Positions 4,452 to 39,991 of a DNA stretch of 44,326 nt are shown here, piece after piece. The position numbers and the translations under genes were made by a program. The notes beneath the pieces are model-generated. The model made no database searches and was not told where the DNA came from. It worked only from the letters and a program-made list of their open reading frames with translations. The stretch is from a virus, in IMG/VR virus record IMGVR_UViG_3300021339_000003, positions 1 to 44,326 of that record. One strand, given 5' to 3'. Each line of letters opens with the position of its first letter. The stretch's first letter is position 1.

Positions 4452-4494
4452 TCTTGTTGCCCCATCAACCGCACGTTGTCAGCGTAGCCCTACC

Positions 4495-4989: not shown

Positions 4990-4992
4990 GCC

Positions 4993-5190
4993 ATGGGCGC
5001 AGCCCGTTCCGGAACTGTGCTCGTTTCGTTCAACAGCGGAATTATCAACCCGCGTCTCGACACGCGTGCGGATTTGCAGCGTGCGCAGTCGTCAGCTCGT
5101 GAGCTGAAAAACTTCCGGGTTGAGGTTCACGGGCGCGTGACGCGTCGTGCGGGCACACAAATGATCGCACCGGCCAAGGTGGTGTCATGA
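4993..5190 (+). CDS. free-standing copy of the nozzle N-terminal module (65 aa); possibly a relic fragment
   Basis: RSGTVLVSFNSGIINPRLDTRADLQRAQSSARELKNFRVEVHGRVTRRAGTQ aligns without gaps to residues 5-56 of the next ORF at about half identity. TGA-GCC-ATG junction with the HNH gene and ATGA overlap with the next gene. Arg codons are 7 CGT of 9, versus 0 CGT in the paralogous segment. Confidence 0.6.
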   Translation: MGAARSGTVLVSFNSGIINPRLDTRADLQRAQSSARELKNFRVEVHGRVTRRAGTQMIAPAKVVS

Positions 5191-15000: not shown

Positions 15001-16872
15001 ATTGGCGGAGGCACGTCTCGCGGCAATCTCACCAATCCACTCAAGCAGGGTTCCCGCTTCGCCAAGACAGCCAAAGGCACAGGGGAGCAGTACGTCACCG
15101 ACTATGCTGACATCGCGGAGCGCATGGTTGAGGGAAACTTTGCCGAGAACGCCAAGCGCCAGCTCTACAAGCAGCTCCTGAAGGACGGGCTCGGGAAGGT
15201 GCAGAAGACGGGCGAAGAGAAGCCGGCCAACACCGACGGCTGGAAGCAATTCCCCATCGAGCGACGCCTCGCCTCCGTCGGAGAAAACCTCTGGGTGCGT
15301 CCCGACGTCGCGCGCGAGCTACGACAGGCGCTCAACGTGGACGGCGTGATTGAAAGCGCCGCCCTTCAGAATCTCGCTAAGCTCGTCACAGGCATCCAGC
15401 TCGCCGGTCCCGTGGACGCCGTGTTCCACACGGCCAACATCCTTTCCGCCATCAATGGTTCGCAGGGCGGGCGCTCGTTGCTCGCTGATCTCGCCCGCAA
15501 GATTCCCGGCGTGAACCTCGTGACGACGCTCGTCGCTGTCACCCGCAAGGCCATGGCTCTCGTCCACGGCGACACCACGCTTCTGCGGGATCTATCATCG
15601 CTCGCCGAATCGGGAGCCCTGCGCGACGAGGGACAGGCGCACAACGGGCTTCTGCGCTATTCCTCGAAGTTCATCGGACTCGTGGACAAGGCGGGACGCC
15701 TCGTCCTGAAAGACATGTTCGACAACCTTACGGAGCGCGGGCTGGCCAAGAACACAGAGCGCAACCGCCGCGAGTTCGTCAATCAGGTGGGCCAGTACAA
15801 CAGCCGGCTTCACGGCCAGTTTCAGCGCATCCTGAAGGAGGTGGGCATCTCCCCGTTCATCGTCGCAGGAAAGACCTTCAACCGGAATGCGCTTCGTCGC
15901 CTGACCGCCTCTCCCGGCTTCGAGGCAGCGTCCCGCAGCGCGGCCATTCAGGCCCGGGCCGTGGAGATTGCCGGGCTCGTCACGACGCTCCTCGTCGTCC
16001 CTGCGACGCTCAACTATCTCGTGACGGGCTCCATTCTTGGACGTCCCGGGACGCCACAAGGAGCCATCGACACAGGGAAGGATGACAAGCGTGGCCGGCA
16101 CATCGTCATCGACCCGCTCCAATGGACGGGCCTTCGTCGTGGTCTGCGCCTGACAGGCATCAACGCTGCCATTCAGGGGGCGCGCAGCGACCAGTCATTT
16201 AATCGCACTGGGGGCGACATGGCGCGCGACATCATCAATTCCGCCGTTCACCCGTACGCAGGCCCCATAGTGCGCGTGGGTGCTGTCGCCCTCACAGGCA
16301 AATCCATCTCCGGCTTCCGCGAAGCCCCGCTTGTTGACGAAGGGTTGCCACAAATCAAAGAGAACCTGAAGGCAGCAGCCAAGGAACTGAACCCGTCTGT
16401 CGGGGCTTTCCTCGAAGGTCGGGAGCGTGGCGGTCCACGGGCTGGGCTGATGGAGACACTGACGAGCCTCGGTAGTGCAGCCGGCGTCAAGGAGGTGAAG
16501 CCGCTCACGGCTGTAACGCGCATCTACAACCTCGCCGATCAATACAAGACGGACCACGACATCCCGAAAGACCCGGGCGAACACCCGGTGTCGCAGTACA
16601 AGCCGCTGAAGGAAGCCCTCCGTATCGGGGACATGGAGGAAGCTGTCGCGTCTGTGCGCACGCTCTTGGAGAAGAAGAAGCGTCCGCTCGATGTGTCGCA
16701 GGACTTCCACGAATCGCTGTTCGCGCCGTTCACGGGCTCGAAGAAAGGCGACAAGCAATTCAGGGCTTCGCTGGACGAGGAGAAACAGGCGGTCTATGAC
16801 GAGGCCGTGGCACAGAGGAAAGAGATGTGGACGCGGTTCCGGGCTGCGCTTCAGGAAGCGCGGGCCAAGTGA
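12055..16872 (+). CDS. large internal virion (ejection) protein, T7 gp16-like position
   Basis: 1605 aa, the largest ORF. GTG start 3 nt (CCC) after the TAG of the previous gene. Last and largest gene of the core-protein block. I recognise no lytic transglycosylase, HExxH or polymerase motif. Confidence 0.55.
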   Translation: MADQPALPPPVAEKSPGRAIPERMEALFGGVDQFDKVLPSEVSAQLNESVSRSVDPQTDKKRWANITFLADRSGQTPEAISQNYARARDNYARQQWGFNGPAEDGQFYDFAGSQLGREKAERQMLGEMQANLSKALIDGTTADMKEAISGQMAEFQTKADPRFNPTRSDLYFHVLGSFAQQKQEQIAELQVPVALLKEYFTRAKNAGVTGGETLGFGEGEIAGLREEAQRVLERFPQQDQDLAIYLASHSVQQTSGPSTEGTFAARADRGVSNTVTNVTENIKRRGHQFATFLDPSITAQEEKAFGSNEPRNAIGRKLDGVVQGTLDPLKGPGWLSNGLMDLVEGFPEMILAFTPGGATVNFLSTSERLHTKYEQEGISSESASLLADVVSIPITAAQFISTKMVFGGKVPFLGKVLSTPVTTGAELAKRIGLTLGAETVTQGTLNELMSVAPELGQQLASQLSDAYPGVDWKKYREEWAARTPEDIARMIPMVLIGTGIASFHEAVGGKEYIQQRDLLEKSGFTPPVIQSIMAAPTVKEAATLVRDNWKAREPAKPDITVEPLGKKYLVVEGVGEPVEQFQVKRAGEERGVTMTREQMLSEGIPVPGESVKASIESVAGLGMQALLKLGETERNGVRGITGYAYELGSHVQSPEDLEALQTAAKDYATRAREILTSGDMERFDEAQVLSSKAQVFREAYEAATDTGSAKGALTEPPAPEGVMARSVKQDVLASNIVQNDNGTYTVSMPDGNPVGTVSTPEAAAALAEGASALHETTAFTRVVNALGGDPQTLGIVPPGFQIVDELLAPITRNRDATMRALAGHSAPATTSASEEAGNALVRYASSKMAAPHVAKAMTAEVLGPRLNDAEFRSRLGSVLVEDRLRAIKRGLENEAAAQTDPQEKAALEQAADRVVSIMGDAEFHTELSDPEIQQAIERHKATIQKTAEQFHTETGGKLAGAGLETGAFVNLQAVFGDDPTAVIGGGTSRGNLTNPLKQGSRFAKTAKGTGEQYVTDYADIAERMVEGNFAENAKRQLYKQLLKDGLGKVQKTGEEKPANTDGWKQFPIERRLASVGENLWVRPDVARELRQALNVDGVIESAALQNLAKLVTGIQLAGPVDAVFHTANILSAINGSQGGRSLLADLARKIPGVNLVTTLVAVTRKAMALVHGDTTLLRDLSSLAESGALRDEGQAHNGLLRYSSKFIGLVDKAGRLVLKDMFDNLTERGLAKNTERNRREFVNQVGQYNSRLHGQFQRILKEVGISPFIVAGKTFNRNALRRLTASPGFEAASRSAAIQARAVEIAGLVTTLLVVPATLNYLVTGSILGRPGTPQGAIDTGKDDKRGRHIVIDPLQWTGLRRGLRLTGINAAIQGARSDQSFNRTGGDMARDIINSAVHPYAGPIVRVGAVALTGKSISGFREAPLVDEGLPQIKENLKAAAKELNPSVGAFLEGRERGGPRAGLMETLTSLGSAAGVKEVKPLTAVTRIYNLADQYKTDHDIPKDPGEHPVSQYKPLKEALRIGDMEEAVASVRTLLEKKKRPLDVSQDFHESLFAPFTGSKKGDKQFRASLDEEKQAVYDEAVAQRKEMWTRFRAALQEARAK

Positions 16873-17627
16873 AGCGTTTACTTTTTCAGGTACTCATCGG
16901 CGAGCGTCGCCCGCTGTGGGAGAAATGCGTCCGCTCTGCGGCGGCATACGCCGCCCGCATTGGCTGCGTTCATCAGGTGCAACTTGAAATGGTTCTAAAG
17001 GTGATGCCGAAAAAGTCTCAACGTAGCGAAGGAGCTGTGCGCTTGGGAGGGCTCCCGAATCTGGAGAAGCTGAACGGCCTCTCTTACCTCCATGAATTCG
17101 AGCAGATCGCGCTCATCGACTCGGATGTCTACATCACGGACAGCGCGCCGAACATTTTCGATTGCGTACCGACTGACTGCGACGTTGCTGGCGTGACAGA
17201 GCGGGCGCTCCCCATCTCACCGCTCTACGCCCGCAAGCTCGATCGCTACGAGCAGATGCAATTTGCTCCCGTCAACGGTGTCGGGTTGCCGTTTTTGCAG
17301 TGCGGCGTGATGGTCTACAACCGGAGCTTTCAGCGGTTCATGCCTGACGGACCAAAGGCCTTTTGGGAGCAGCCTTCATTGGAGCGGTTCATCAACGGCG
17401 AAGGCGGATGGCGCTGGCAGAGTGAACAATGTACTTTGTCTTGGTTCCTTCGCGCGAACAGCGTGAACGTGGCTGCACTCCCCATTCAGTTTAACTGGTT
17501 GTATGGAGCGTTGCAGCCCGGGCGGATGCACGAGGGTTGGTTCCACCACCTGTTTTTGTCGGAGCACTTAAAGGGCGACGACCCGGCCGAGATGATCCGA
17601 ACGGGCACAGCCCGTCCACGGCTGTGA
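16869..17627 (+). CDS. DxD glycosyltransferase (GT-A fold, GT8/GT32-like), paralog 1
   Basis: GTG 16869 overlaps the upstream TGA (GTGA). The N-terminus VKRLLFQ aligns with paralogs 2 and 3. Motifs IALIDSDVYI (DxD), CGVMVYN, EQCTLSWFL and FHHLF. An alternative ATG at 16827 would overlap the upstream gene by 46 nt. Confidence 0.65.
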   Translation: MKRLLFQVLIGERRPLWEKCVRSAAAYAARIGCVHQVQLEMVLKVMPKKSQRSEGAVRLGGLPNLEKLNGLSYLHEFEQIALIDSDVYITDSAPNIFDCVPTDCDVAGVTERALPISPLYARKLDRYEQMQFAPVNGVGLPFLQCGVMVYNRSFQRFMPDGPKAFWEQPSLERFINGEGGWRWQSEQCTLSWFLRANSVNVAALPIQFNWLYGALQPGRMHEGWFHHLFLSEHLKGDDPAEMIRTGTARPRL

Positions 17628-18271
17628 AGCGGCTGGTTCTCCAACACTGGCACGAGGCTGCGCTTCCCGAAATCGCGAAGCTCTCCACGGCAAACATGCG
17701 TTGGCACGCCGCGCAGATGGGGGCCGACTATCGCCTGCTTTCAGGAAACGTCTTTGAGCCCCGCCTATCGCCGTGGTCTCAAAAGCTCGTGATGCTGCTC
17801 CCCGAGTGGGACGAGTACGAGACCGTGGTAATGGTGGACGTGGATCAATTCGCCGTGAACGGATTGAAAGAAGACATCTTCGCGGAGACCGGCTACGGCT
17901 GGCACCACGCGACCGCGCAGGCACGCGTACGTCGCAACCTGAAGGCACTGACGAGCGATAGCGCCCCTTTCTGGGGCGGTGCGGTCTATCGCCTTCCGCT
18001 CCCCCTGCGCGTGAAGCTGCGCAACGCCTACAGTTACGAAGAAGCGCGGCCCTTCGATACGATGGCCAACGGCGTTGACGAAGGCGTGATGCACAGGCTC
18101 GCCATCCTCGCCCAGATTCCCACCGAGGGCGCTTACCTCAATTTCAAATGGTGCTGGCCGAGCTACGAAGAGGATTTTTCAAAGGCGTGTTTCGTCCACG
18201 TGCGTAACCGTCCCACAGGATCAAAGTTGAAGAATTACGAAGCCCTGCGTGATGCTGGGATCATCCAATGA
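17624..18271 (+). CDS. DxD glycosyltransferase (GT-A fold), paralog 2
   Basis: GTGAAGCG start overlapping the upstream stop, the same octamer as paralog 1. VKRLVLQHW...LP......HAAQMGADYRL...YETVVMVDVDQFAVNGLKEDIF. Confidence 0.6.
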   Translation: MKRLVLQHWHEAALPEIAKLSTANMRWHAAQMGADYRLLSGNVFEPRLSPWSQKLVMLLPEWDEYETVVMVDVDQFAVNGLKEDIFAETGYGWHHATAQARVRRNLKALTSDSAPFWGGAVYRLPLPLRVKLRNAYSYEEARPFDTMANGVDEGVMHRLAILAQIPTEGAYLNFKWCWPSYEEDFSKACFVHVRNRPTGSKLKNYEALRDAGIIQ

Positions 18272-18453
18272 AGACACCCGCTCTCTACGATCCCATTACG
18301 TTTTTTGCGCTGCCGGTTCACGAGAGTATGGAGCCGGAAATCGCCGTGCTTGAAGCACGCGACCAGCCCACGGGCTTCGTCGACGAGAGCGGTGACACGT
18401 GGGTTGCGGTGTTCGTGGACGGAGACCTGAAACGGCAGAAGCTCGTCGAATGA
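18268..18453 (+). CDS. hypothetical protein (61 aa)
   Basis: ATGA overlaps at both ends link it into the glycosyltransferase operon. Confidence 0.55.
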   Translation: MKTPALYDPITFFALPVHESMEPEIAVLEARDQPTGFVDESGDTWVAVFVDGDLKRQKLVE

Positions 18454-19175
18454 AAGTCTCCGTTGTCGGTCAGGACACGCTTGCAAGCGCCGTGGCTGAA
18501 TGCTGCTCGTCCCACTTCACCGTCACGCGCCTCCCGGATTCCGACACTGATGTGCTGTGGCTTTGCGAGGACACGCCCATCATGCCCGACGGCATGCCGG
18601 ACGTTGAGTCGATTGTCTCGGGCGCATGTCTGGCCATGGCTGGCGTCTCCCCCTTAACCCTCGTCGTCCTGTCCTCCCAAGTGCCTCTTGGCACCACGGC
18701 ACGGCTGGAAGCCGCGTTCCCGCAGCATCGTATTGTCTGCTGCCCCGAGAACATCCGCGTAGCGTCGGCCGTGGCCGACTTCAGGCAGCAGACCCGCATT
18801 GTCGTGGGCGTGCGTGGCGAAGCGCGCCCTGCGCTCCTCGCGGAGCTTCTGGCCCCGTTTACGTCCCTCATCATCTGGACGACGCCCGAAACGGCGGAAT
18901 TGGTGAAGCACACGCTCAACGCCTACCTCGGGCTGACGATAGCGTTCATCAACGAGATTGCCCGCATCACGGCTCCGTACCAATGCGACATGAACGCCCT
19001 CGCCCGCGCCCTGCGCACGGAAGGACGCATCAGTCCCAAGGCTCCGCTCCTTGCCGGTCCCCCTTTTGGCGGGGGTCATCTTGAACGGGACATCCGTGTG
19101 CTGACGACTCTCGCCGTGAAGCAGGGCGTTTACGTTCCCTTGGTCGCCAACATTCTCGCGAGTAACCGGGCATGA
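18450..19175 (+). CDS. UDP-glucose/GDP-mannose 6-dehydrogenase-like protein, truncated and apparently catalytically dead
   Basis: 241 aa from ATG 18450. Family blocks present: SSQVPLGTT, CPENIRVASAV, RIVVG, AELVKHTLNAYLGLTIAFINEIA, PFGGGHLERD. The Rossmann GxGxxG is degenerate (GQDTLA), the Cys nucleophile position is His, and the protein ends ~25 aa later, so it lacks the C-terminal UDP-sugar domain. Confidence 0.65.
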   Translation: MKVSVVGQDTLASAVAECCSSHFTVTRLPDSDTDVLWLCEDTPIMPDGMPDVESIVSGACLAMAGVSPLTLVVLSSQVPLGTTARLEAAFPQHRIVCCPENIRVASAVADFRQQTRIVVGVRGEARPALLAELLAPFTSLIIWTTPETAELVKHTLNAYLGLTIAFINEIARITAPYQCDMNALARALRTEGRISPKAPLLAGPPFGGGHLERDIRVLTTLAVKQGVYVPLVANILASNRA

Positions 19176-19951
19176 ACTGCATTTTTCAGTATTGGCTCTC
19201 CCGTCCCGTACTCCCCGGCGCAGAGGCTGGAGCCGCCGCCATGGCAGCCTACGCGAAGATGGTGGGAGCGGACTACCGCTTTGACCGGCACGACCCGTAC
19301 ACCAACAGGCTGGGCGTTGACGCCAGGTGGTTTGACAAGCTGCGCCCCGTCTATGACCCCACGTTCAGGCCGTACGAACGCGTGCTTGTCTGCGACGTTG
19401 ACGTGTTTCCCGTCGAGGGAATCACGGACAACATCTTCATGGAGGCCGTCGGCGACTTCGGCATGTGCGAGGAGCCGGACCAACCGTGGATAAGGGAGAA
19501 GTTTCCGTCGTCCATCTTCAGCAGCGAGAACGATAAGAAATGGGCTGCGTGGTGCGCCGCCAAATGGGGCTGCAAGATTCCGAAGGACGACAAGGGACGC
19601 GTGCGCCAATGGAACGCCGGCCTGATTCTCTTCTCTGCTGCCGGCGTGGAGAAGATGCGTTCCGTTCACCCGCAGCCAAAAGCGTACGTGGAATCAATCA
19701 AGGGCGCAGGGCTCACGGCCTCGTACGCGACCGAGCAATGTTTTCTCAACGCCCTCGCGTTCTCAGGACTACTCAACTTCACGCCGCTCTCCGTGGAGTA
19801 CAATCGGCAAGTCCACGGCCTGAAGGACGGAACGAAGTACGACAGGCGAACTGCGGACACCAAATTTGTCCACGTCCAAGAACGCGCAGCCGATCACAAC
19901 GACGCCGCGTGGCACCACCGGATCGTAAATTCGCACCGTGGTCAAAGCTGA
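19172..19951 (+). CDS. DxD glycosyltransferase (GT-A fold), paralog 3
   Basis: MNCIFQYWLSRPVLP...AAYAKMVGADYRF...YERVLVCDVDVFPVEGITDNIF...WNAGLILFS...EQCFLNAL...KFVHV. ATGA overlap upstream. Confidence 0.65.
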   Translation: MNCIFQYWLSRPVLPGAEAGAAAMAAYAKMVGADYRFDRHDPYTNRLGVDARWFDKLRPVYDPTFRPYERVLVCDVDVFPVEGITDNIFMEAVGDFGMCEEPDQPWIREKFPSSIFSSENDKKWAAWCAAKWGCKIPKDDKGRVRQWNAGLILFSAAGVEKMRSVHPQPKAYVESIKGAGLTASYATEQCFLNALAFSGLLNFTPLSVEYNRQVHGLKDGTKYDRRTADTKFVHVQERAADHNDAAWHHRIVNSHRGQS

Positions 19952-20495
19952 GATAGTTGCTGCGGATCTCGCAGAGTTTTACGTCCTTTTACGCGCCGCC
20001 CAAGAGCGCGCCCACGGTCCCGATTACTGCGCCCACCACGGATTGATAGTCGATGCTGCGAAAGAAGGCTGCGAGACGTACGTCGAGCTGGGTACTAATC
20101 AGGGCTGCACGCTCGCCTGTGCCCTTTTGGCAGGCTTTCGTTGGGCATTTGGGGTGGACATATCCCCCGGCCCATTCAGAGCCGTGGAGGCCCTATTCCA
20201 AGCCGATGCGAAGCGATGTGACCAAGTGGTCGAAGTGTTCGGGCAGGACAGCCGCAACCCGCTCGGTTTCCCCATCGACTTTCTTTTGATAGATTCGCTC
20301 CACCGTCCGGAGCATTTGCGCTCGGAGCTGAAGGTGCATGGTCCGTTTGTTCGTCAGCAAATCCTCGCCCACGACACCACCAAATATCCAGAGCTGGCCG
20401 TGGAGCTGGAGCGGTGGTCAAAGGACAATGGTTGGACTGTCGCAATTCGCGAGTCTCGCGGCCACGGGCACATGCTGTTGAAACGTCAGACATGA
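19938..20495 (+). CDS. class I SAM-dependent methyltransferase (CmcI/Methyltransf_24-like)
   Basis: ETYVELGTNQGCTLACAL (motif I) and IDFLLIDSLHRPEH. GTG start overlaps the upstream gene by 14 nt. Confidence 0.6.
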   Translation: MVKAEIVAADLAEFYVLLRAAQERAHGPDYCAHHGLIVDAAKEGCETYVELGTNQGCTLACALLAGFRWAFGVDISPGPFRAVEALFQADAKRCDQVVEVFGQDSRNPLGFPIDFLLIDSLHRPEHLRSELKVHGPFVRQQILAHDTTKYPELAVELERWSKDNGWTVAIRESRGHGHMLLKRQT

Positions 20496-21061
20496 CGCTA
20501 CAGCAGATTTTCGAGAAGCATGGCACGGACAAGGCACAGCATTTTTACCACGCCGTTTACGAGAAGCTGACGCCACCGAATAGGCTCCTTGAGGTTGGCG
20601 TTTGGAAAGGCGCTTCCCTGCGGGCGTGGTGCGAATGGTGGCCAGATGCGGAAATTACCGGCGTGGACATTGGCGCTCGGGGCATCGTGCAGCGCGTTGA
20701 CCGCGCTGTCGTCCTTCAGTGGGACTCCACCAAAGGCGGCGGTCTTCCGAGTGTAACCTTTGACCTCATCATCGACGACGCTTCCCACAGGCCCCGCGAT
20801 CAGGCGAAAACGTTTACGAATCTGTGGCCGTTGCTCACTCCGGGTGGCGTCTACTTCATCGAGGACTGTTTCCCTATAGACCTCTTCCAAGACGAGGACT
20901 TCCCCGCGTGGTTTGACGCTCGTCGCGAACACTTCAACATGGCGACGTGGCTGGACCTCGCCAACGCCATCGCCGCCTCTGGCGGCACCCTCACGCGCCA
21001 CGACTTCCGCGCCCAGAGCGGCAAGCCCGACTCCGTACTCTTGCAGATCAACAAGCCATGA
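20492..21061 (+). CDS. class I SAM-dependent methyltransferase (sugar O-methyltransferase-like)
   Basis: ATG 20492 (ATGA overlap). HGTDKAQHFYHAVYEKL...LLEVGVWKGASLRAWCEWWPDAEITGVDI...FDLIIDDASHRPRDQ...GGVYFIEDC is the pattern of methyltransferases found in polysaccharide gene clusters. Confidence 0.7.
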   Translation: MTLQQIFEKHGTDKAQHFYHAVYEKLTPPNRLLEVGVWKGASLRAWCEWWPDAEITGVDIGARGIVQRVDRAVVLQWDSTKGGGLPSVTFDLIIDDASHRPRDQAKTFTNLWPLLTPGGVYFIEDCFPIDLFQDEDFPAWFDARREHFNMATWLDLANAIAASGGTLTRHDFRAQSGKPDSVLLQINKP

Positions 21062-21774
21062 GCAGCACACAGCAGCTCGCCTTCGCCATCACGCTGCCGG
21101 AGATCCCCCGCTCCATGGACAGCTTCCAGAATCTCACGCGCTCAAGCGAAGCCGTGGGCAACCCGTTTGCCGTCCACATGTGGCACGGAACGCCCGCTCA
21201 CGAAGCCATCAAAGTGATGAAGGAGGAGCGGCTTGAATGGACGTACCCGCTCACGGGATCAAAGGTGATTGGTGGACTGACCTGCACGCCATACAGCGGC
21301 AATCATTGGGCGCGTGTCGCATGCGCTCTCAGCCATCTCCACCTCTGGAAATACTGCGCCCAATTGAATCTCCCGTTCATCGTACACGAAGATGATTCCG
21401 AGTACGTGCGCAGGTTTGATCCTGCGGAGGTGAGCGATGCTGGATTCGGTGCGGTGTCTTTGAACAACCCGCACGGAGCTACGCGTAGTGCGTCGCTCTA
21501 CCATAGGAACCTTGTGCTCGGGATAAGTCTGCCGTACTTGACTTGCGCTCCGTGTCCTTGGGTGGACGAGGACGCGAGCCAGCCACAAGGACTTCCCGGC
21601 AATTCTGCCTACTATCTGCAACCGTGGTTCGCCGCCGAGTTGATCGCGAAGGTTTGGGGGGTTGGTCTGATTCCCAACGATTCGTTGATGTGTCGCCAGT
21701 GGTTCCCGGGAAAGCTGGCTTGCCTCAGGAACTACGCGACGAAAACAAATGGACGCACTAGCTTGATCCGATAG
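21058..21774 (+). CDS. glycosyltransferase family 25-like (LOS/LPS type), copy 1
   Basis: ATG 21058 (ATGA overlap). ACALSHLHLWKYCAQLNLPFIVHEDDSEYV is the GT25 signature block. Confidence 0.55.
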   Translation: MSSTQQLAFAITLPEIPRSMDSFQNLTRSSEAVGNPFAVHMWHGTPAHEAIKVMKEERLEWTYPLTGSKVIGGLTCTPYSGNHWARVACALSHLHLWKYCAQLNLPFIVHEDDSEYVRRFDPAEVSDAGFGAVSLNNPHGATRSASLYHRNLVLGISLPYLTCAPCPWVDEDASQPQGLPGNSAYYLQPWFAAELIAKVWGVGLIPNDSLMCRQWFPGKLACLRNYATKTNGRTSLIR

Positions 21775-21780
21775 AACAGC

Positions 21781-21815
21781 AACGCCGCGTCGGGAACCAC
21801 CCCGAACACGGCGTT
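21781..21815 (+). other. stable hairpin after GT25 copy 1 (weak terminator or processing site)
   Basis: AACGCCG..TCGGG-aaccac-CCCGA..CGGCGTT gives about 13 bp with one bulge. Only TTT follows it. Confidence 0.35.
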
Positions 21816-21844
21816 TAACCACAACTAACGAGGAGGCGTCAGTC

Positions 21845-22306
21845 ATGGATGAGAAATTAAAGGAGCGTTTTTGGGCTCAGGTCAACCGCGCGGAAGAAAA
21901 GGAGTGTTGGCTCTGGAAGCGCCCACCAATGAATGTGGGTTACGGACAAATAGTCCTTCAAAATAAACCCTACTACGCGCACCGACTGGCATGGGAGCTG
22001 ACTCACGGCGCGATTCCGAGCGGTCTTTTCGTATGCCATACTTGTGACGTTCGTCTATGCTGTAATCCGCGTCATTTGTTTCTCGGTTCTCCGTTGGTTA
22101 ATTCGCGCGACGCTTTAGTGAAAGGCCGGCTCGCTTGTGGACCTGATCATCCGAACACGAAACTTGCGCCGGACGATCCAACTCGCATGCGGGCGCTCCA
22201 TGCCACTGGCTTGATTAGTCATCGCGAATTGGCGCTAGCCTTCGGGGTTTCGCGTCGGCATGTCGGGGCTATTTGCAGCAGGAAAATATGGAAGCAAGTA
22301 CCCTGA
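21845..22306 (+). CDS. HNH endonuclease (free-standing homing-endonuclease type)
   Basis: CWLWKRPPMNVGYGQIVL...YAHRLAWELTHGAIPSGLFVCHTCDVRLCCNPRHLFLGSPLVNSRD plus a C-terminal HTH-like RELALAFGVSRRHVGAI. The only gene with a strong spaced GAGGAGG (8 nt before ATG). About 48% G+C in its first 120 nt by hand count, versus about 59% in the first 120 nt of the capsid gene. Confidence 0.9.
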   Translation: MDEKLKERFWAQVNRAEEKECWLWKRPPMNVGYGQIVLQNKPYYAHRLAWELTHGAIPSGLFVCHTCDVRLCCNPRHLFLGSPLVNSRDALVKGRLACGPDHPNTKLAPDDPTRMRALHATGLISHRELALAFGVSRRHVGAICSRKIWKQVP

Positions 22307-22944
22307 TGCGTGCCCTAGTAATTACGATCATGTCCATGCCGGAATCGGTGGTAGCCGCTCAACGTTGCATCGTCTCGTGCTCCAAGTTCGGGCTGTCCGT
22401 GGAGATGTTCCCGGCGATCACGCCGGCCGACGACGTGCACTCGATGTTTCGCGCGAGAGGTTGGCCGACAGATAAGTTCACAAACAATCGCTTTAGTCGG
22501 ACGGAGCCGTGCATGGCGTGTTTTCTTTCGCATATGGCCGCCCTGCACCAATGCGCTTACAGCGGAGAAAGTCTTTGCCTGCTAGAGCATGACGCCGTGA
22601 TGGTGCGGCCGCTACCACGTTTCCCGATCGTCGGTGGTCCGATTGTGTGCAGCCTCGGAAAGCCGAGCTTTGGCACGTTCAGGACGCCGTCAGCGGGCAT
22701 TCGCCCGCTGACATCCAAAAGTTTCGTGCCGGGGGCTCACGCGGTTTACTACCGTCACAATGGCGCAGAAGCCGTCTTGGCGAAGGCGAAAGAGTGCGAG
22801 CCAACAGACGTTTTTCTGAACCTGAAACGCTTTTCGTTCATCAAAGAGCTGTACCCGTGGCCCTTTGTATGTGAGGACGAATTCTCCACGGTCCAAGGAC
22901 CTGAGGGAATCAAGGGCAAGCACCGGCCCGTCGTCATCGTTTGA
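22306..22944 (+). CDS. glycosyltransferase family 25-like, copy 2
   Basis: MRALVITIMSMPESVVAAQRCI...FGLSVEMFPAI...ACFLSHMAALHQCAYSGESLCLLEHDAVMV. ATG 22306 shares one base with the HNH stop (TGATG). Alternative ATGs exist at 22273 and 22288. Last gene of the rightward unit. Confidence 0.55.
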   Translation: MRALVITIMSMPESVVAAQRCIVSCSKFGLSVEMFPAITPADDVHSMFRARGWPTDKFTNNRFSRTEPCMACFLSHMAALHQCAYSGESLCLLEHDAVMVRPLPRFPIVGGPIVCSLGKPSFGTFRTPSAGIRPLTSKSFVPGAHAVYYRHNGAEAVLAKAKECEPTDVFLNLKRFSFIKELYPWPFVCEDEFSTVQGPEGIKGKHRPVVIV

Positions 22945-22955
22945 GCCGAACCGGA

Positions 22956-22979
22956 CGACGCAGCGAACGCTACGCGTCG
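22956..22979. terminator. hairpin at the convergent junction (possible bidirectional terminator)
   Basis: CGACGC-AGCG-aa-CGCT-a-GCGTCG sits in the 25-bp gap between the + strand stop (22944) and the - strand stop (22970). There is no U-tract. Confidence 0.35.
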
Positions 22980-23404
22980 CTGGTCTTGGTGTTCGGCATG
23001 AACTCGGCCGCGTCGATTACCTCCGCGCTGCTGACGATCTTCAGCACGCGCACCTTGTCATCGGGGTGGATCGAAAGAAACAGTGCCAGCCGCGAGCGTA
23101 TGACCTGCTTCGATATCGTGGGCTCGCCGATACCGACCCACGATGGATCAAATTCGCCATCGCTCCAAAGATGCTGCGGCTGGTAGGTGATCTTCGGCGG
23201 TGCACCGTCAGTGACTTCGCGGACTGGCGCGGGCGGGTTCGGTTGCCCGCAAAGACGGTGGTCCATATGAAAGGCGCAGTCGCAATGGGTGTAGCCGCAT
23301 TTCGGGCATTGCTCGTGAACGGACAAGGGGAGCCCGCACACGAAACACGCCGAACCAGACGCCGGAGCAGACGGCCCGGCAGCGTTTTCAGTTTTCGTTT
23401 CCAT
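22970..23404 (-). CDS. zinc-ribbon protein (144 aa), last gene of the leftward operon
   Basis: N-terminal Cys/His cluster CFVCG...CPKCGYTHCDCAFH. Its start shares one base with the upstream stop (TAATG). Confidence 0.6.
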   Translation of the reverse strand: METKTENAAGPSAPASGSACFVCGLPLSVHEQCPKCGYTHCDCAFHMDHRLCGQPNPPAPVREVTDGAPPKITYQPQHLWSDGEFDPSWVGIGEPTISKQVIRSRLALFLSIHPDDKVRVLKIVSSAEVIDAAEFMPNTKTSDA

Positions 23405-23718
23405 TAGGTTTTTGGGCCGCTGCTCACCTCAGCGTTCGGCTTCAGCCCGACGGTGGCCATGCACTCGTCGAGCCACGTGAGAGTCACGCGATAGTTGGGC
23501 GCATTTCCGTAGTCGATCACCTCGACCATATCGTCCGGTAGTTCCTCGCGACCAGTCCAGCCATACCGAGCCGTGAGGGCATCGCCATAGGCACGATCCG
23601 CTTCGTTCGCCAGTTCCGCCAATCGCTTGCGTCTTTTCGCGGCGCGGAGCAGAGCCGAACCAGCCGGTCCAGCGCAACTCCGGTGGACGCGCCCAGAATT
23701 TCGAGAAGTCTTTTTCAC
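23404..23718 (-). CDS. hypothetical protein (104 aa) with MKKTSR-type basic leader
   Basis: GTG 23718 in a GTGA overlap with the upstream stop. Its first 18 nt are 15/18 identical to the start of the upstream gene. Confidence 0.55.
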   Translation of the reverse strand: MKKTSRNSGRVHRSCAGPAGSALLRAAKRRKRLAELANEADRAYGDALTARYGWTGREELPDDMVEVIDYGNAPNYRVTLTWLDECMATVGLKPNAEVSSGPKT

Positions 23719-24131
23719 GCGTGAGCCTCCGGCCCGGAGTTGCTGACCTGAGCGTTCTGACCACAGATCGACGGCAGTCTGCGGTAGTAGTGCGGCGGGG
23801 TGCGCGGTTTGATGTCGCCGCTTAGACGCCACCCGCTCGCCGTGTACCAGCCGGTGCGCACAGTTTCGACTTTGCCGTGCACCCACCCCAGTAAGATCAA
23901 CTCGCGATCGTTCGGGATGAAGTGCTCCACCTCATACCACTGGTCATCGTAGCGTCGCGTCTGCAACTCGTTCAGCGCGGACCGGATCGCTGGCGCGTAG
24001 TCAGCCAAGCGGCAGCCGTTTTTTTCCGCCTCCGCTCGATTGAGCGCATATCGCAGCACGTGAAGAGGGTCAGAACCAGTTCGTCGAGCCAACCCGGTTG
24101 ACGCGCAGCGTTTGCGAGAGGTCTTTTTCAT
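23715..24131 (-). CDS. hypothetical protein (138 aa), DUF551-like C-terminal half
   Basis: ATG 24131 (ATGA overlap). MKKTSRKR leader. WYEVEHFIPNDRELILLGWVHG...TGWY...PPHYYRRLP resembles DUF551-type phage proteins (from memory). Confidence 0.5.
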   Translation of the reverse strand: MKKTSRKRCASTGLARRTGSDPLHVLRYALNRAEAEKNGCRLADYAPAIRSALNELQTRRYDDQWYEVEHFIPNDRELILLGWVHGKVETVRTGWYTASGWRLSGDIKPRTPPHYYRRLPSICGQNAQVSNSGPEAHA

Positions 24132-24829
24132 TGCGGTTGCTTTTCGCCGGGTTGGCTCACGGCGGTGTTCGGCATACCCTTCCACGCCTTCGTCACCCAA
24201 TGGTCAGGTGGAAAGCTGTCGTTCTTTGGCTGGCCGTGGAAGCACAGCACAGAGCCTGTGACGGGCTGGCGTAGCTTCTCCTGAATCTTCCAGCTTTGGA
24301 AGACCCCCGGGAAGAGCGGTTGCAGCCCGCGGTGGACGTACTGTCCCACGATTGAGCCGTCTCCGTTGGACCAACCGGGCTTGCACACGGGCCTACGACA
24401 GAACTCCGCATGGATGGCCTCTGTCTCCGCGCAGGGAACCCACGCCATGACGCCCGTCGCCGCTCTGTGAGGCGCAAAGAAGTCGTCCAAGAGCAGGAGC
24501 CGTCCTCCGGCTACGATCTTCGCTTCCAGATCGGGGATCGGCTTCAGGATGAGCGAGTCCAAATCGACGTAGAGCACCGGACCCTCAAAGAGGCCCGGAG
24601 CCCACAGGTTCAACTTGGAGAACCACCCCGGCCACGGCTGGGGCAGTGGCACAAGACGAACAGCTTCAAACGGAGCGCACATGATTGGAGCCCCGCCGTT
24701 GAAGTCGTCTGTCAGGCAGACAATCTGGTCTGGTTGGAGGTGGTTGCGCACCTGACGGCAAAGGCGCTGCGTCCACGTGTGGTCATACGCGCCTCCCGAG
24801 CGCATCACGGTTACGAACGTCAGGCTCAT
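24128..24829 (-). CDS. DxD glycosyltransferase-like protein (phage nucleotide-diphospho-sugar transferase family)
   Basis: MSLTFVTVMRSGGAYDH...IVCLTDD...PWPGWFSKLNLWAP...GPVLYVDLDSLIL is a pattern common in phage GT-A proteins. Confidence 0.6.
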   Translation of the reverse strand: MSLTFVTVMRSGGAYDHTWTQRLCRQVRNHLQPDQIVCLTDDFNGGAPIMCAPFEAVRLVPLPQPWPGWFSKLNLWAPGLFEGPVLYVDLDSLILKPIPDLEAKIVAGGRLLLLDDFFAPHRAATGVMAWVPCAETEAIHAEFCRRPVCKPGWSNGDGSIVGQYVHRGLQPLFPGVFQSWKIQEKLRQPVTGSVLCFHGQPKNDSFPPDHWVTKAWKGMPNTAVSQPGEKQPQ

Positions 24830-28201: not shown

Positions 28202-28807
28202 TTACTTGGCCGCGATCTTCTCGGCATCCTTGGCCGGCGTCATCTCGATCACTTGCCCGGAAGCGGCAGGCAGCGCCCTGCGGGACGCCTTGGGCGGCTC
28301 CATGCCGGGGAAATAGAGCTGCGCCCCGCCTGCGGCAATCAGCTCGTTGGCCTCCTGCACCTCGACGCTGTTCTCCCCGTGGCGCTTGGCCACGTCATCG
28401 AACCACGCGAAGATGCGCGTGGGCCGCTGCATGATGAGTTTCACGCGATCATTACCGTCGAGGACGTTGTTGCCCTCGTCGTCGGTCTTGACCTTGAGAA
28501 AGCTCAACTGCCGATCGACCACGGCGTCACGCTGGGCAGGCGTGAGCCCGTCCCAGCAGCGGGCATCAATGAGGATTTCCGCGTCACCACGGCCCGCGCC
28601 ACGGTCGCGCTGGCTGATGATGCGCGTCTTGGCGACTTGGACGCCGCCCCATTGCTTGATGGGCGCTCCGTCGTCATCCTCCTGCGGCGTGACAAAAAGG
28701 ACGTCCAGTCGGGCTCGTCCCTTTACGAGCCCTTTGTGGAACTTCCCTGCGATCTTCTTCACCCGTTTTTGTACGTCGGCGGGCGCGACTGAGTAGCGGT
28801 TGGACAT
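28202..28807 (-). CDS. hypothetical protein (201 aa), possibly a degenerate phage metallopeptidase-like fold
   Basis: The layout (...KFHKGL....RLDVLFV...ILIDARCWDGLTPAQRDAVVDRQLSFL...) recalls a phage family whose members carry DHELxH at the position of DRQLSF. This is memory-based and unverified. Confidence 0.3.
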   Translation of the reverse strand: MSNRYSVAPADVQKRVKKIAGKFHKGLVKGRARLDVLFVTPQEDDDGAPIKQWGGVQVAKTRIISQRDRGAGRGDAEILIDARCWDGLTPAQRDAVVDRQLSFLKVKTDDEGNNVLDGNDRVKLIMQRPTRIFAWFDDVAKRHGENSVEVQEANELIAAGGAQLYFPGMEPPKASRRALPAASGQVIEMTPAKDAEKIAAK

Positions 28808-38878: not shown

Positions 38879-38883
38879 ACACC

Positions 38884-39108: not shown

Positions 39109-39416
39109 TGTTGTCCGAAACCGTCCAGATTGCGCTCGTCGCAACGATCGCTCCCACCGTGGCCGCTCTGGCCGGCGTCTTCATTTCTCTAGGCAATCGC
39201 AGGAAGGCGGAGGAAACACGGGTGGCTGTCACAGCCACCGCGGCGAAGGCTGACACGATCATCGAGAAGGCTGCGGAAATCCACACGCTGACGAACTCGA
39301 ATCTGTCGAAGGTGACAGCGGCGCTGGAAGTCGCCAACGAGAAGATTCAGGGTCTGGAGAAGCTGATGGCGTCGATGGTCAAGGCGCATGCCGCAGCGAA
39401 CGCGGCGAAGCCGTGA
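39108..39416 (+). CDS. type-II membrane protein with coiled coil (102 aa), inner-membrane spanin (Rz)-like candidate
   Basis: N-terminal TM segment IALVATIAPTVAALAGVFISL, then a helical Ala/Lys/Glu-rich region. It lies just upstream of the terminase gene, as the T7 spanins do. Confidence 0.45.
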   Translation: MLSETVQIALVATIAPTVAALAGVFISLGNRRKAEETRVAVTATAAKADTIIEKAAEIHTLTNSNLSKVTAALEVANEKIQGLEKLMASMVKAHAAANAAKP

Positions 39417-39991
39417 AAGTGGCGCTGCTCGTACCCGGACCGTCGCTGTGCGACTTCTGGAGCGAGTCGAAGTTCGACGAGTACGAGACGGTGGTGGCCG
39501 TCAACGGAGCAGCCCACCTCTTCCGCTCTCATTGGTTCTGCGGCGTAGACAAGGGCCTCGTCAAAGCCTCGCTTGACGGCAGCAAGCGCCGCCCGCTCTG
39601 CGGCTTCGTCACCAACCGTGCGTGGTGCGCAGGAGCCGTTCACATCGGTCTGGAGGGCATCCAGCCTGATCCGTACTATGGCCGCAACATGCCCAAGGGG
39701 CTGGCGATACCACGGACGCACAGTCCGGACAGATGCGGCTACACGTTCCCGAATGCGCTCTGGTACGCGCTCAAGCTCGCCACTGGCGAACCGATCCACG
39801 TCTACGGATTCGACTTCGCTGTGATGAGAGATGACGCCGACGGAACCAAGGGCGACCACACAGCCAGCAGATTCAAGACAGAGGCGGCGTGGGTGCGGGG
39901 ATGGTGGGTTTCGTCGATTGTCGTCTACGGACGGGCGAAGCCTGAGTTGTTGCAGTATTTGCAACGACTGCGTAGCGATTGGGAGCCATGA
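39413..39991 (+). CDS. GPSL-motif Rossmann protein (CstII/GT42- or MAF/DUF115-like putative glycosyltransferase)
   Basis: GTG in a GTGA overlap. From memory, VKVALLVPGPSL...YETVVAVNGAA...TFPNALWYALKLATGEPIHVYGFDF parallels the GNGPSL...N...TSG...A.ALGY.EIYL.GIDF blocks of sialyltransferase-like and motility-accessory-factor enzymes. Confidence 0.4.
   Translation: MKVALLVPGPSLCDFWSESKFDEYETVVAVNGAAHLFRSHWFCGVDKGLVKASLDGSKRRPLCGFVTNRAWCAGAVHIGLEGIQPDPYYGRNMPKGLAIPRTHSPDRCGYTFPNALWYALKLATGEPIHVYGFDFAVMRDDADGTKGDHTASRFKTEAAWVRGWWVSSIVVYGRAKPELLQYLQRLRSDWEP

Follow-up and report, generated by a model that had tools for sequence, protein, structure and literature searches.

A conserved, phage-borne cassette of putative glycosyltransferases and sugar O-methyltransferases in an uncultured podovirus

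Bacterial glycosyltransferases of the GT8 and GT25 families are chiefly LPS/LOS core enzymes, and GT8 plus GT25, in some cases with sialyltransferase-like enzymes, represent the classical tool-kit for the LOS outer core. LOS-type assembly runs without a flippase or polymerase, and methyl caps are known from O-antigens of the ABC-transporter type. Among viruses, chloroviruses (via A064R and its partners) and some mycobacteriophages glycosylate their own structural proteins, and the glycosylated subunits of mycobacteriophages bear extensions. Modules of glycosyltransferases and O-methyltransferases for virion glycans are known, reportedly also from Freeman et al. 2023.

The window analyzed here, a stretch of 44,326 nucleotides from an uncultured podovirus, contains a tightly packed same-strand block at 16869-22944. 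Profile and structure comparisons confirmed its preliminary description as a set of several glycan-tailoring enzymes, comprising GT-A/GT8-like and GT25-like transferases as well as SAM O-methyltransferases. A new finding, not visible from the single sequence, is that the block is a widely shared mobile cassette.

Composition and layout of the block

Ten ORFs rather than the nine genes initially counted were found in the block, including a 61-aa ORF and an HNH_3 endonuclease gene (Table 1). The stop of the internal virion protein gene (16872) and the GTG start of g1 (16869) overlap in GTGA. The described 4-nt start/stop overlaps are present at six further junctions (17624, 18268, 18450, 19172, 20492, and 21058) but not at 19938 (14-nt overlap), 22306 (1-nt overlap), and 21845, which is separated from g7 by 70 nt that include the ribosome-binding site GAGGAGG.

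Table 1. Features of the block and outlying candidates in the window
Feature	Coordinates	Strand	Remarks
g1, GT8-like GT-A glycosyltransferase	16869..17627	+	DSD motif, 252 aa
g2, GT8-like GT-A glycosyltransferase paralogue	17624..18271	+	VDVD motif, 215 aa
61-aa ORF, small, acidic, no assigned function	18268..18453	+	ATGA overlaps at both ends
g3, truncated UDP-glucose/GDP-mannose dehydrogenase-like protein	18450..19175	+	241 aa
g4, GT8-like GT-A glycosyltransferase	19172..19951	+	D75xD77, N148-G150, H234; 259 aa
g5, class-I SAM methyltransferase, Methyltransf_24/rhamnosyl-O-methyltransferase-like	19938..20495	+	185 aa
g6, MycE/TylE-like sugar O-methyltransferase	20492..21061	+	189 aa
g7, GT25-like glycosyltransferase	21058..21774	+	Pfam PF01755, 238 aa
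HNH_3 homing endonuclease	21845..22306	+	Pfam HNH_3 E 4e-14; PHROG endonuclease E 2e-28
g9, GT25-like glycosyltransferase paralogue	22306..22944	+	homology to g7, 212 aa
g10, DxD GT-A glycosyltransferase	24128..24829	-	VDLDS, 233 aa, convergent arm
g11, PGPSL...YGFD protein	39413..39991	+	192 aa; possible sialyltransferase-like fold

No Pfam match of their own was obtained for g1, g2, and g4. In profile-profile comparisons (hhalign), g1 (99.4%, E 5e-22) and g2 (99.7%, E 5e-26; BLASTP against g4, E 2e-9) matched the g4 family, and the three form one family, of which 28 out of 98 members matched Pfam GT8 (best E 2.7e-12) and in which DxD, N..G, and H are kept in the alignment. Top Foldseek matches of the g4 AlphaFold (AF2) model (pLDDT 96.5) were PBCV-1 A64R (E 2e-6, TMt 0.63), LARGE1, UGGT, and GT6 in the PDB, and cyanophage and giant-virus GT-A proteins in the BFVD. 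The g4-family profile matched XXYLT1, LARGE1, and WbbM; the best PDB sequence match of the GT8-like family was WbbM, an O-antigen galactan enzyme (E 1.6e-4), XXYLT1 and Skp1 GalT were weak profile matches, and LgtC appeared only at a non-significant E of 0.23. The outlying g10 had no match among PDB sequences. It matched phrog_1962 'glycosyltransferase' (E 6e-28) and the marine cassette family c5 (hhalign 95%), which in turn matched g4 (88%). This gene is a cassette-associated member, adjoining the cassette directly in L003/L004, L035, L044, L075, and L079. The g10 orthologue in L001/L002 is adjoined by a C5 DNA methylase gene.

Over a short stretch only, g7 matched PF01755 with 28.1 bits (cut-off 24), whereas g9 stayed under the cut-off (E 0.003) but matched g7 by hhalign (100%, E 4e-39). 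A joint g7/g9 profile matched the solved GT25 structure 8xc8 (E 3e-9), a bacterial-type GT25, followed by Mimivirus R655 (E 1e-6) and COLGALT1 (E 4e-5). H76, E94, and D96 are invariant in the g9 family, and g9 is the best-conserved cassette member. Of the two methyltransferases, g5 reached exactly the cut-off of PF13578 (Methyltransf_24; 26.3 bits); its family, with invariant ELGTxQGG and DSxH motifs, matched PF13578 in 13 out of 23 members and PF04989 (RMNT_CmcI, rhamnosyl O-methyltransferase) in 8 out of 23. For g6, matches to PF13578 (E 8e-9) and phrog_21658 (E 1e-22) were found, and its family profile matched MycE (3ssm, E 7e-21) and the TylE-like demethylmacrocin O-methyltransferase (8ia9, E 2e-19). 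Thus, the predicted three paralogous DxD (GT-A) transferases, the additional DxD transferase facing them, the two GT25-like transferases, and the two class-I SAM methyltransferases were all supported.

The claim of a truncated UDP-glucose dehydrogenase-like protein needs correction. g3 matched PF00984 (UDPG_MGDP_dh central; E 1e-17) and part of PF03721 (N domain), covers positions 64-294 of 413 in TIGR03026, and aligned to residues 59-284 of 446 in the UGDH 4a7p, but it has lost the catalytic Cys (GGSC to GGGH) and the C-terminal UDP-binding domain. A function as UGDH was ruled out on these grounds; g3 is catalytically disabled and unable to oxidise UDP-glucose. Its orthologue in L095 is 61% identical, gap-free, and has the same GGGH, and no orthologue was found in any other fetched locus; g3 is read as a conserved accessory protein, either non-catalytic or repurposed. 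The 61-aa ORF, which is translationally coupled to both neighbors, is not conserved and had no match in any fetched locus or in NCBIfam. The HNH_3 gene separating the GT25 paralogues is a selfish insert and not a pathway enzyme. Its GC3 is 0.53 compared to 0.65-0.76 in its neighbors, and it is found at the same site in L003/L004 only and missing from L001, L095, and L096.

The GPSL-motif protein g11 had also been counted as a transferase of the system. It had no match in Pfam, PHROG, or PDB sequences, and its family is small (103 representatives). Foldseek with the AF2 model (pLDDT 70) returned CstII on top (E 0.013) and ST6GALNAC2 (prob 0.96) at a TM of about 0.5, pointing only weakly to a sialyltransferase-like fold. 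Since g11 is unlinked to the block, lying with lysis and terminase (packaging) genes here as well as in the relative L097, and is not homologous to the marine cassette family c6, its membership of the glycan system is doubtful.

TM-like segments were found in none of the block proteins, g10, and g11, and all cassette proteins are soluble. Pfam/NCBIfam annotation of the window revealed no flippase, polymerase, or working sugar-nucleotide (NDP-sugar) enzyme, and neither an integrase nor a DNA hydroxymethylase (Pfam/PHROG annotation and ORF inventory) nor a TET enzyme was detected in it. These results support the preliminary description. Its assignment to the T7-type podoviruses holds only for the structural module; the ORF inventory of the window contains no ORF of the size of an RNA or DNA polymerase.

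Distribution of the cassette among phages and bacteria

At least 96 IMG/VR contigs, the majority of them fragments of low-GC marine T4-like myoviruses, carry the block as a conserved syntenic cassette. It is absent or nearly so among 50,697 GenBank phage records, and bacteria carry it only rarely. Orthologues occurred in 84 (g4), 77 (g2), 61 (g9), 60 (g7), 54 (g5), 48 (g1), and 26 (g6) loci, with the gene order g1-g2-g4-MT-g7-g9 kept and 35-53% identity among g9 orthologues to that of the window. The E-values for the block, together with its recurrence in some 100 further contigs, lie far outside what chance would give. Divergence from the window was about equal over six cassette families (median 32-38%), pairwise distances correlated positively between cassette genes (r 0.31-0.86), GC of the loci spans 31-65%, and no window gene outside the cassette was common to other cassette loci. 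These comparisons show a conserved, horizontally mobile, phage-borne cassette in otherwise unrelated uncultured phages. In the marine contigs it lies amid replication and repair genes, and marine versions also carry sulfotransferase, radical SAM, epimerase, and nucleotidyltransferase genes. A g4 relative was present in three bacterial genomes. In L086 (Arenicellales MAG) the island lies beside two Kdo/WaaP-family LPS kinase genes as well as GT4, GT2, and GT32 genes, and the copy in L087 adjoins an IS110 transposase amid housekeeping genes.

Within the podovirus clade of the window the cassette is accessory. More distant members lack it, and in them a pectate-lyase tailspike, another GT/MT fusion, or other genes follow the internal virion protein gene. 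The described embedding in the late operon applies to the window and its closest relative L095, but in L001/L002, L003/L004, and L096 g2 to g9 are inverted and continue an opposite-strand arm of small, mostly unannotated genes, taken to be early genes. Hence, late-operon membership is not conserved. Only g1 stays behind in these relatives; it follows the large internal virion protein gene in every cassette-bearing podovirus relative.

Proposed function and acceptor

The chemistry, in which a methyl-capped oligosaccharide is put together step by step in the cytoplasm, is well supported; the order of steps, donor sugars, acceptor, and benefit we infer as follows. Three GT8-like paralogues and g10, two GT25-like enzymes, and two SAM-dependent sugar O-methyltransferases would be fed in the cytoplasm by host nucleotide-sugars and SAM. 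Sugars would be added singly onto a pre-existing acceptor and O-methyl caps afterwards, and the resulting oligosaccharide would be a defined one with about five to seven residues. The acceptor may be a host lipid-linked envelope glycan at the cytoplasmic face of the inner membrane, either LPS/LOS core or Und-PP-linked O-polysaccharide of the ABC-transporter type, and the host exporters MsbA/Lpt or Wzm/Wzt would bring the modified glycan to the surface. The altered surface of the infected cell might mask receptors from competing phages or prevent futile re-adsorption of progeny.

A host LPS/LOS-type glycolipid is tentatively favored over virion proteins as acceptor, as a possible rather than probable assignment. 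The main affiliation of bacterial GT8 and GT25 enzymes with LPS/LOS core, the flippase- and polymerase-free nature of LOS-type assembly, the matches to WbbM and to a bacterial-type GT25, and the LPS-kinase neighborhood in L086 argue for it, although the surroundings in L087 suggest that this neighborhood may be incidental. Furthermore, the variable site that the accessory cassette fills behind the internal virion protein gene is the usual home of host-surface-interaction genes. The same guess was made for the GT8-rich clusters of Pelagimyophage (PMC7029224). Against an LPS-type acceptor, conservation over very different hosts (as reflected by the GC range) would be easier with an acceptor carried by the phage, and the late-operon coupling in the window and L095 is late for outer-membrane remodelling in a lytic cycle. 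In addition, no membrane-association feature was seen in the cassette proteins, and the nearest structures include PBCV-1 A64R and Mimivirus R655, which glycosylate virion proteins.

Virion glycosylation, by which a methyl-capped glycan would be placed on capsid, fibre, or tail in the cytoplasm before or during assembly, is somewhat less likely and would serve for shielding or tuning of the particle surface. It agrees with the fact that the window and L095 show translational coupling of the cassette to late structural genes, with the constant position of g1 next to the internal virion protein, and with a phage-carried acceptor as the reason for conservation across hosts. A64R, which tops the structural matches of g4, is a capsid-glycosylating enzyme, the GT25-like profile also matched R655 and the protein-acting human collagen galactosyltransferase, comparable modules for virion glycans are known, and the fibre at 34535-36043 has a high content of Thr, Ser, Ala, and Gly. 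However, GT-A fold matches at a TM of about 0.5 are generic, most of the cassette lies on the other gene arm in L001-L004 and L096, and bacterial chromosomal copies exist without phage context. Podoviruses and T4-like contigs have only the cassette in common (about 10 kb on each side, virion genes being mostly unsampled), so that a shared acceptor protein is not seen in its vicinity. In contrast to the glycosylated mycobacteriophage subunits, neither the major capsid protein (303 aa) nor the head protein (161 aa) is extended compared to its counterparts in relatives that lack the cassette (298-309 and 153-176 aa, respectively).

Another cytoplasmic acceptor is improbable, whether a host protein (as for toxin-like GT-A enzymes), a precursor of capsule/EPS or peptidoglycan, a methylated oligosaccharide in free form, or a small-molecule glycoside. 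In its favor, all enzymes are soluble, no acceptor was identifiable in the compared loci, members of the GT8 fold family include self-glucosylating glycogenin and the protein-directed XXYLT1 and Skp1 GalT (weak matches here), and the additional marine genes indicate elaborate chemistry. Nevertheless, positive evidence for a specific alternative is absent, and six to seven separately conserved transferases point to an oligosaccharide on a macromolecule, not to a simple glycoside.

Glycosylation of phage DNA bases for evading restriction is very improbable despite the replication and repair genes around the marine cassettes and the C5 DNA methylase in L001/L002, because Pfam, PHROG, and the ORF inventory revealed no thymidylate-synthase-like hydroxymethylase, C5-methyltransferase, or TET/5mYOX in the window, and MycE/TylE-type sugar O-methyltransferases are, to our knowledge, foreign to known DNA pathways. 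5hmC does receive mono- to trisaccharides from phage clusters with several LPS-enzyme-related glycosyltransferases, but the described DNA-acting GT-A enzymes are JGT/TarP-like with R...DDD...EDY motifs (bioRxiv 2023.12.21.572611) and differ from the GT8-/GT25-like cassette.

Relation to cellular pathways

The preliminary description stated that no precedent fits the enzyme set. This missed the methyl-capped O-antigens and the outer-core tool-kit of cellular LOS, which has the same combination of GT8 and GT25 as the cassette.

Genome organization and layout of the cassette

Ten ORFs occupy positions 16869-22944 on the same strand, directly behind the last internal-virion-protein gene. The preliminary description had listed nine genes joined mostly by 4-nt overlaps; start/stop overlaps of this length were indeed found at seven junctions, that with the virion-protein gene among them, but the gene number had to be corrected. 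The repertoire comprises two sugar O-methyltransferases and six or seven glycosyltransferases that are soluble and fall into two families; the DxD transferase g10 on the opposite strand comes in addition. Two absences noted earlier were borne out as well: no TM-like segment was detected in any of the island proteins, and no flippase, polymerase or working sugar-nucleotide synthesis gene was found in the window. A scan of 9-26 kb for sigma-70 promoters and terminators returned fewer or no more sites than shuffled sequences, so that operon borders are unreadable from that scan.

An exact 127-bp direct repeat at both window ends (1-127 and 44200-44326) indicates that the genome is complete at about 44.2 kb, being either a closed circle or terminally redundant; its GC content is 61%. 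In this complete 44-kb high-GC podovirus genome the cassette has its minimal form of about 6 kb without sugar-nucleotide genes. The designation as T7-type podovirus holds for the structural module, with portal, tail tubular proteins A and B, and internal virion proteins, but neither an RNA nor a DNA polymerase was matched in the window and no unassigned ORF is big enough to encode one. Thus, "T7-type" describes the virion module only. Since replication genes are undetectable, the phage must have its replication and transcription carried out by the host or by novel proteins. Integrase, thymidylate-synthase-like enzyme, C5-methylase and TET were all missing from the window in Pfam searches, PHROG annotation and the ORF inventory; annotation revealed no lysogeny genes either, and tRNA genes were not found. 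Megablast of positions 16000-24000 against 50,697 GenBank phages yielded no near DNA relatives, and for tail tubular B the highest identity to any of these phages was 39%.

Coordinates of the features discussed (window positions unless a locus is named)
Feature	Position	Strand	Remark
ORF continuing the gene order after portal	1-282		
Scaffold	935-1966	+	after wrap-around
Capsid	2230-3141	+	
Tail tubular A	3795-4451	+	
Second HNH endonuclease	near 4492 (probable start) to 4989		behind tail tubular A
65-aa ORF	4993-5190		after second HNH endonuclease
749-aa tail protein	5187-7436	+	
Tail tubular B	7440-9584	+	
Internal virion proteins	up to 16872	+	
g1, GT8-like	16869-17627	+	
g2, GT8-like	17624-18271	+	
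g3, UGDH-like	18450-19175	+	
g4, GT8-like	19172-19951	+	
g5, methyltransferase	19938-20495	+	
g6, methyltransferase	20492-21061	+	
g7, GT25-like	21058-21774	+	
HNH homing endonuclease	21845-22306	+	between GT25 paralogues g7 and g9; GC3 lower than neighbors
g9, GT25-like	22306-22944	+	
Presumed early arm	22970 to ~31181	-	small, mostly unannotated genes
g10, DxD transferase	24128-24829	-	
PhageMetallopep domain	28202-28807		in early arm
Lysis-like block	36949-39416		just upstream of g11 and terminase
g11, 192-aa protein	39413-39991	+	
Large terminase	40218-41852	+	
Portal (PF12236)	42426-44093	+	
g3 orthologue	L095 8560-9288		closest relative
GT2/Methyltransf_11 fusion, 408 aa	L092 18738-19964	-	cassette-less sister
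C5 cytosine DNA methylase (PF00145)	L001 926-2448; L002 129-911		downstream of g10-type transferase
Bacterial island, Arenicellales MAG	L086 8607-16974		
Bacterial island, Candidatus Poriferihabitaceae MAG	L087 7790-14893		
Unmatched marine cassette families, examples	L055 8835-9998; L023 7658-8398; L062 13984-14631		

Outside the cassette, the PhageMetallopep domain was the single recognisable match in the early arm. The 65-aa ORF behind the second HNH endonuclease duplicates the N-terminal ~60 residues of the 749-aa tail protein, and in two relatives (L093 and L094) the N-terminal domain of this tail protein is fused to tail tubular B. The arrangement at 4336-7436 has the appearance of a domain shuffle or of a duplication associated with a homing endonuclease. 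The stretch preceding g11 resembles a lysis block: it encodes a 456-aa protein containing a Pro-rich linker, a holin-like protein of 57 aa with two TM segments, a lipoprotein-like protein of 130 aa (LTGC) and two small membrane or coiled-coil proteins, none of which had a family match.

Enzyme families

The three putative transferases g1, g2 and g4 were not recognised by Pfam, PHROGs or NCBIfam alone. Profile-profile comparison unites them in one family (probabilities of 99.4%, 99.7% and 96.6%), and 28 of the 98 members of this family match the GT8 model PF01501 (best E 2.7e-12). The family carries the DxD metal/nucleotide-sugar motif together with the N-x-G and C-terminal His of GT8 type: D75xD77, N148-G150 and H234 of g4 are invariant in the alignment, as are D84, D86 and H227 over the 98 family sequences. 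A high-confidence AF2 model of g4 (pLDDT 96.5) matched GT-A enzymes of the GT8, GT24 and GT6 families, with PBCV-1 A64R as top structural match, followed by LARGE1, UGGT and GT6. When the family profile was searched against the PDB, the GT8-domain structures WbbM (E 1.6e-4) and XXYLT1 (E 0.007) and also LARGE1 were found; LgtC was non-significant (E 0.23).

Profile searches also placed the proteins previously read as GT25-like transferases and class-I SAM methyltransferases in these groups. The GT25 model PF01755 was matched by g7 with 28.1 bits (cut-off 24) over a 28-residue stretch only, and by g9 with 18 bits, under the cut-off. Both are paralogues (hhalign E 4e-39), and their joint profile matched the solved GT25 protein 8xc8 with E 3e-9 over 177 positions as well as Mimivirus R655 and a collagen galactosyltransferase; precomputed PF01755 matches are also present in relatives. 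The methyltransferase g6 matched PF13578 (E 8e-9), and its profile matched the macrolide-sugar O-methyltransferases MycE (E 7e-21) and a TylE-like enzyme (E 2e-19). The second one, g5, lies at the PF13578 threshold; 13 of its 23 relatives match this model and 8 the rhamnosyl O-methyltransferase model PF04989, and the motif E-x-G-x-x-x-G is invariant in the g5 family. Hence, g5 and g6 are predicted class-I SAM sugar O-methyltransferases of the MycE/TylE or Methyltransf_24 type. The transferase g10 matched phrog_1962 (E 6e-28) and is related to a family located at the cassette end in marine loci. No significant PDB sequence match was obtained for g10 or for the g5 family.

The reading of g3 as a truncated UDP-glucose-dehydrogenase-like protein was right as to the truncation, but a working UGDH is not encoded. 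The protein retains the central domain and a shorter N domain but lacks the UDP-binding C-terminal domain; it stops at model position 294 of 413 and, in the alignment to UGDH 4a7p, at residue 284 of 446. GGGHLERD stands at the position of GGSCFPKD in 4a7p, which removes the catalytic Cys. In the window the N-terminal sequence is VVGQDTLA, with GxGxxG spoiled, versus VVGSGILA with an intact Rossmann motif in L095, the closest relative. These are the only two genomes in which g3 was seen. The possibility that g3 is a decaying pseudogene was rejected on account of the L095 orthologue, which is 61% identical, gap-free and shows the same Cys-to-His exchange at the catalytic position. Thus, g3 is a maintained non-UGDH protein rather than debris.

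The medium-confidence AF2 model of g11 (pLDDT 70) found CstII (E 0.013) and ST6GALNAC2 (TM ~0.5) as best fold matches, both non-significant, and g11 had no sequence match. In a relative it stays with lysis and packaging genes. The fold signal may be weakly sialyltransferase-like, and g11 was not counted as an established cassette member. Homology of g11 to the conserved marine family c6, which closes the cassette, was considered and not accepted, as profile comparison gave 11-53% probability over a 21-residue motif only. The family c6 (~215 aa, GNG...YGFD) itself had no PDB match. Along with c12 (~390-460 aa, also present in bacterial islands), c13 (~245 aa) and c9, it is one of the well conserved marine families without Pfam or PDB match.

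Distribution in phages and bacteria

With the g4 family as query, 96 relatives were found in IMG/VR, and 80 loci among them were fetched with ~10-kb flanks. Over 84 loci, orthologues were counted for g1 in 48, g2 in 77, g4 in 84, g5 in 54, g6 in 26, g7 in 60 and g9 in 61 cases, with g1-g2-g4-MT-g7-g9 as the usual gene order. Other window genes were shared only with four close podovirus relatives. Most cassette loci have a GC content of 31-43% and T4-type flanks, including an RNase H 45% identical to that of cyanomyophages, a UvsX 67% identical to that of jumbo myoviruses, and gp32- and PhoH-like genes. In the marine versions, genes for an NAD epimerase/dehydratase, a HAD-nucleotidyltransferase fusion, a sulfotransferase, FkbM and other methyltransferases, a radical-SAM/SPASM protein and additional GT8-like enzymes are interleaved. 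Measured against the window, the six core families show much the same distance (median 32-38%), and their pairwise distances co-vary, which suggests an old unit that moves as a block and whose paralogues were already distinct. In tblastn searches against the 50,697 GenBank phages, g1 and g4 had no match and g9 had one weak match. At this level of detection the cassette is essentially absent from GenBank phages, and there is no cultured relative to guide the assignment of function.

Tail tubular B has 489 relatives in the protein database, and the IMG/VR search with it gave two loci. Within this large podovirus clade the cassette is accessory, being absent from four members at 41-48% tail-protein identity. 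In the cassette-less members the big internal virion protein is followed by a pectate-lyase tailspike, other ORFs or a convergent GT2/methyltransferase fusion. The fusion in the sister locus L092 is convergent with the internal-virion-protein gene at the same spot; this slot thus seems to collect glycan-modifying genes repeatedly. Embedding in the late operon, as described for the window, applies there and in L095, where the entire cassette is co-directional with the late genes, but it does not extend to L001/L002, L003/L004 and L096. In these relatives the g2 to g9 block is inverted and extends the other gene arm, and g1 alone remains behind the virion-protein gene. A search for direct or inverted repeats flanking the invertible block gave only short matches at chance level. 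L001 and L002 encode a C5 cytosine DNA methylase directly downstream of the g10-type transferase; the window carries no such gene.

Matches were found in at least 3 of 185,579 species genomes, a lower bound limited by the search pattern. Two MAGs of different families, one of the Arenicellales and one of Candidatus Poriferihabitaceae, have an island of ~7 kb in common with about 90% protein identity (72-92%). It encodes cassette-type proteins, namely c12, c9, GT32, a GT25-like protein and two GT8-like ones, of which one is fused to a methyltransferase. The Arenicellales island lies beside two Kdo/WaaP-family LPS kinase genes and GT4, GT2 and GT32 genes. The other one is located next to an IS110 transposase gene among housekeeping genes, a setting that points to recent horizontal exchange of the island among bacteria. 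A metagenome scan for further bacterial contexts with the GT8-like protein of the Arenicellales island gave no match.

Possible acceptors and comparison with known systems

A set of soluble glycosyltransferases and methyltransferases without membrane protein, flippase, polymerase or working NDP-sugar enzyme points to cytoplasmic action on an existing acceptor. Host nucleotide-sugars and SAM would serve as donors for a methyl-capped oligosaccharide of defined structure. That each paralogue is conserved separately speaks for distinct steps. The acceptor may be a lipid-linked envelope glycan of the host, exported by the host machinery, and we tentatively rank this candidate first. GT8 and GT25 enzymes constitute the tool-kit of the LOS outer core, whose products are exported by host machinery, and methyl caps are typical of ABC-transporter O-antigens. 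The ranking further draws on the O-antigen enzyme WbbM as best family-level PDB match, on the LPS-core context of the Arenicellales island and on the location of the cassette in a variable host-interaction slot.

Against this ranking speak the conservation of the cassette over phages of very different hosts, its coupling to late genes in the window and the likeness to virion-glycosylating enzymes of giant viruses. On these grounds glycosylation of the virion stays a close rival that we consider possible and somewhat less probable. However, no common acceptor is visible within the ~10-kb fetched flanks. Furthermore, the capsid and head proteins equal those of cassette-less relatives in length, and no capsid extension of the mycobacteriophage type was evident from this comparison. 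In its strongest form, virion glycosylation would be a self-contained PBCV-1-like system in tailed phages of Gram-negatives, which places a conserved methyl-capped oligosaccharide (in marine versions also sulfated) on the particles, the unit having spread between T7-like podoviruses and T4-like marine myoviruses. This version is hardly less probable than virion glycosylation as such; if it were true, glycan-coated virions would be common in uncultured aquatic phages and unseen in cultured ones. Other cytoplasmic acceptors are, even taken together, improbable. Modification of the phage DNA is the least credible target by far, because hydroxymethyl-base enzymes are absent and DNA pathways use other GT-A subtypes.

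Our literature search found no description of the conserved g1-g2-g4-MT-g7-g9 unit and nothing specific on this gene combination in podoviruses or on LOS remodelling by lytic phages. A discrete conserved cassette common to T7-like and T4-like uncultured phages seems to be new, and so do the minimal version found in a small podovirus, the variation in orientation and the maintained, catalytically disabled UGDH-like partner. Part of the marine LPS-like clusters represents a discrete, anciently conserved unit of three GT8-like and two GT25-like steps with O-methylation, which moves between unrelated phage types; the chemistry is ordinary and the distribution unexpected. Action on the host envelope would imply LPS remodelling by a lytic phage without any membrane machinery; with action on the virion, phages of Gram-negative hosts would have their first virus-encoded pathway of virion glycosylation. 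The compact version can be synthesised and expressed, which makes the choice between host envelope, virion and DNA directly testable, and the enzymes offer a range of divergent specificities among GT8, GT25 and sugar O-methyltransferases.

Among known systems, Gtr acts in the periplasm and depends on the membrane proteins GtrA (flippase) and GtrB together with a GT-C transferase. An altered host surface glycan, as proposed for the cassette, is common to both. In contrast to Gtr of temperate phages, the block encodes no membrane protein, Pfam and PHROG searches gave no GtrA, GtrB or GT-C matches, and lysogeny genes were not found. Freeman et al. reportedly found in 2023 that mycobacteriophage glycosyltransferases modify capsid and tail tube. 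With this O-glycosylation, virion glycans have a precedent among tailed phages, although the hosts are Actinobacteria and the acceptors are C-terminal extensions, which were not seen on the capsid and head proteins of the window. Phage DNA glycan clusters contain several sequential LPS-related glycosyltransferases, sometimes with epimerases, and are defined by a neighboring 5hmC/5hmU-producing enzyme, either ThyS-like or a C5-MT with 5mYOX (Pyle et al., bioRxiv 2023.12.21.572611). In the window, Pfam and PHROG annotation revealed no source of hydroxymethyl-pyrimidines, and its leftover unannotated ORFs are small.

Marine T4-like phages carry LPS-type clusters of GT8, GT25 and other glycosyltransferases with epimerases and sugar-nucleotide enzymes, for which speculative functions and targets have been given (host-recognition cluster of pelagimyophages, PMC7029224; cyanomyophages P-SSM2, S-SCSM1 and S-SCSM2R, PMC12801897). 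Most IMG/VR relatives of the cassette are located on such T4-like contigs, whereas the cassette of the window is pared down to transferases and methyltransferases in a 44-kb high-GC podovirus. In the capsid glycosylation machinery of PBCV-1, where A064R combines two rhamnosyltransferase domains with a methyltransferase domain, the system is likewise virus-encoded and cytoplasmic, with GT-A fold and O-methyl cap. However, PBCV-1 is a eukaryotic giant virus, and the fold match of g4 amounts to only TM 0.5-0.6 at 13% identity. The LOS outer-core sets of Haemophilus, Neisseria and Campylobacter (LgtC of GT8; Lic2A, LpsA and LgtB of GT25; Lic3A and CstII of GT42) differ from the cassette, which resides on a lytic-looking phage, is mobile between phages, has very divergent sequences and two sugar O-methyltransferases, and whose acceptor is a predicted one. 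They unite the same CAZy-type families and, like the cassette, comprise several soluble or peripheral paralogues with distinct specificities that act stepwise in the cytoplasm without flippase or polymerase.
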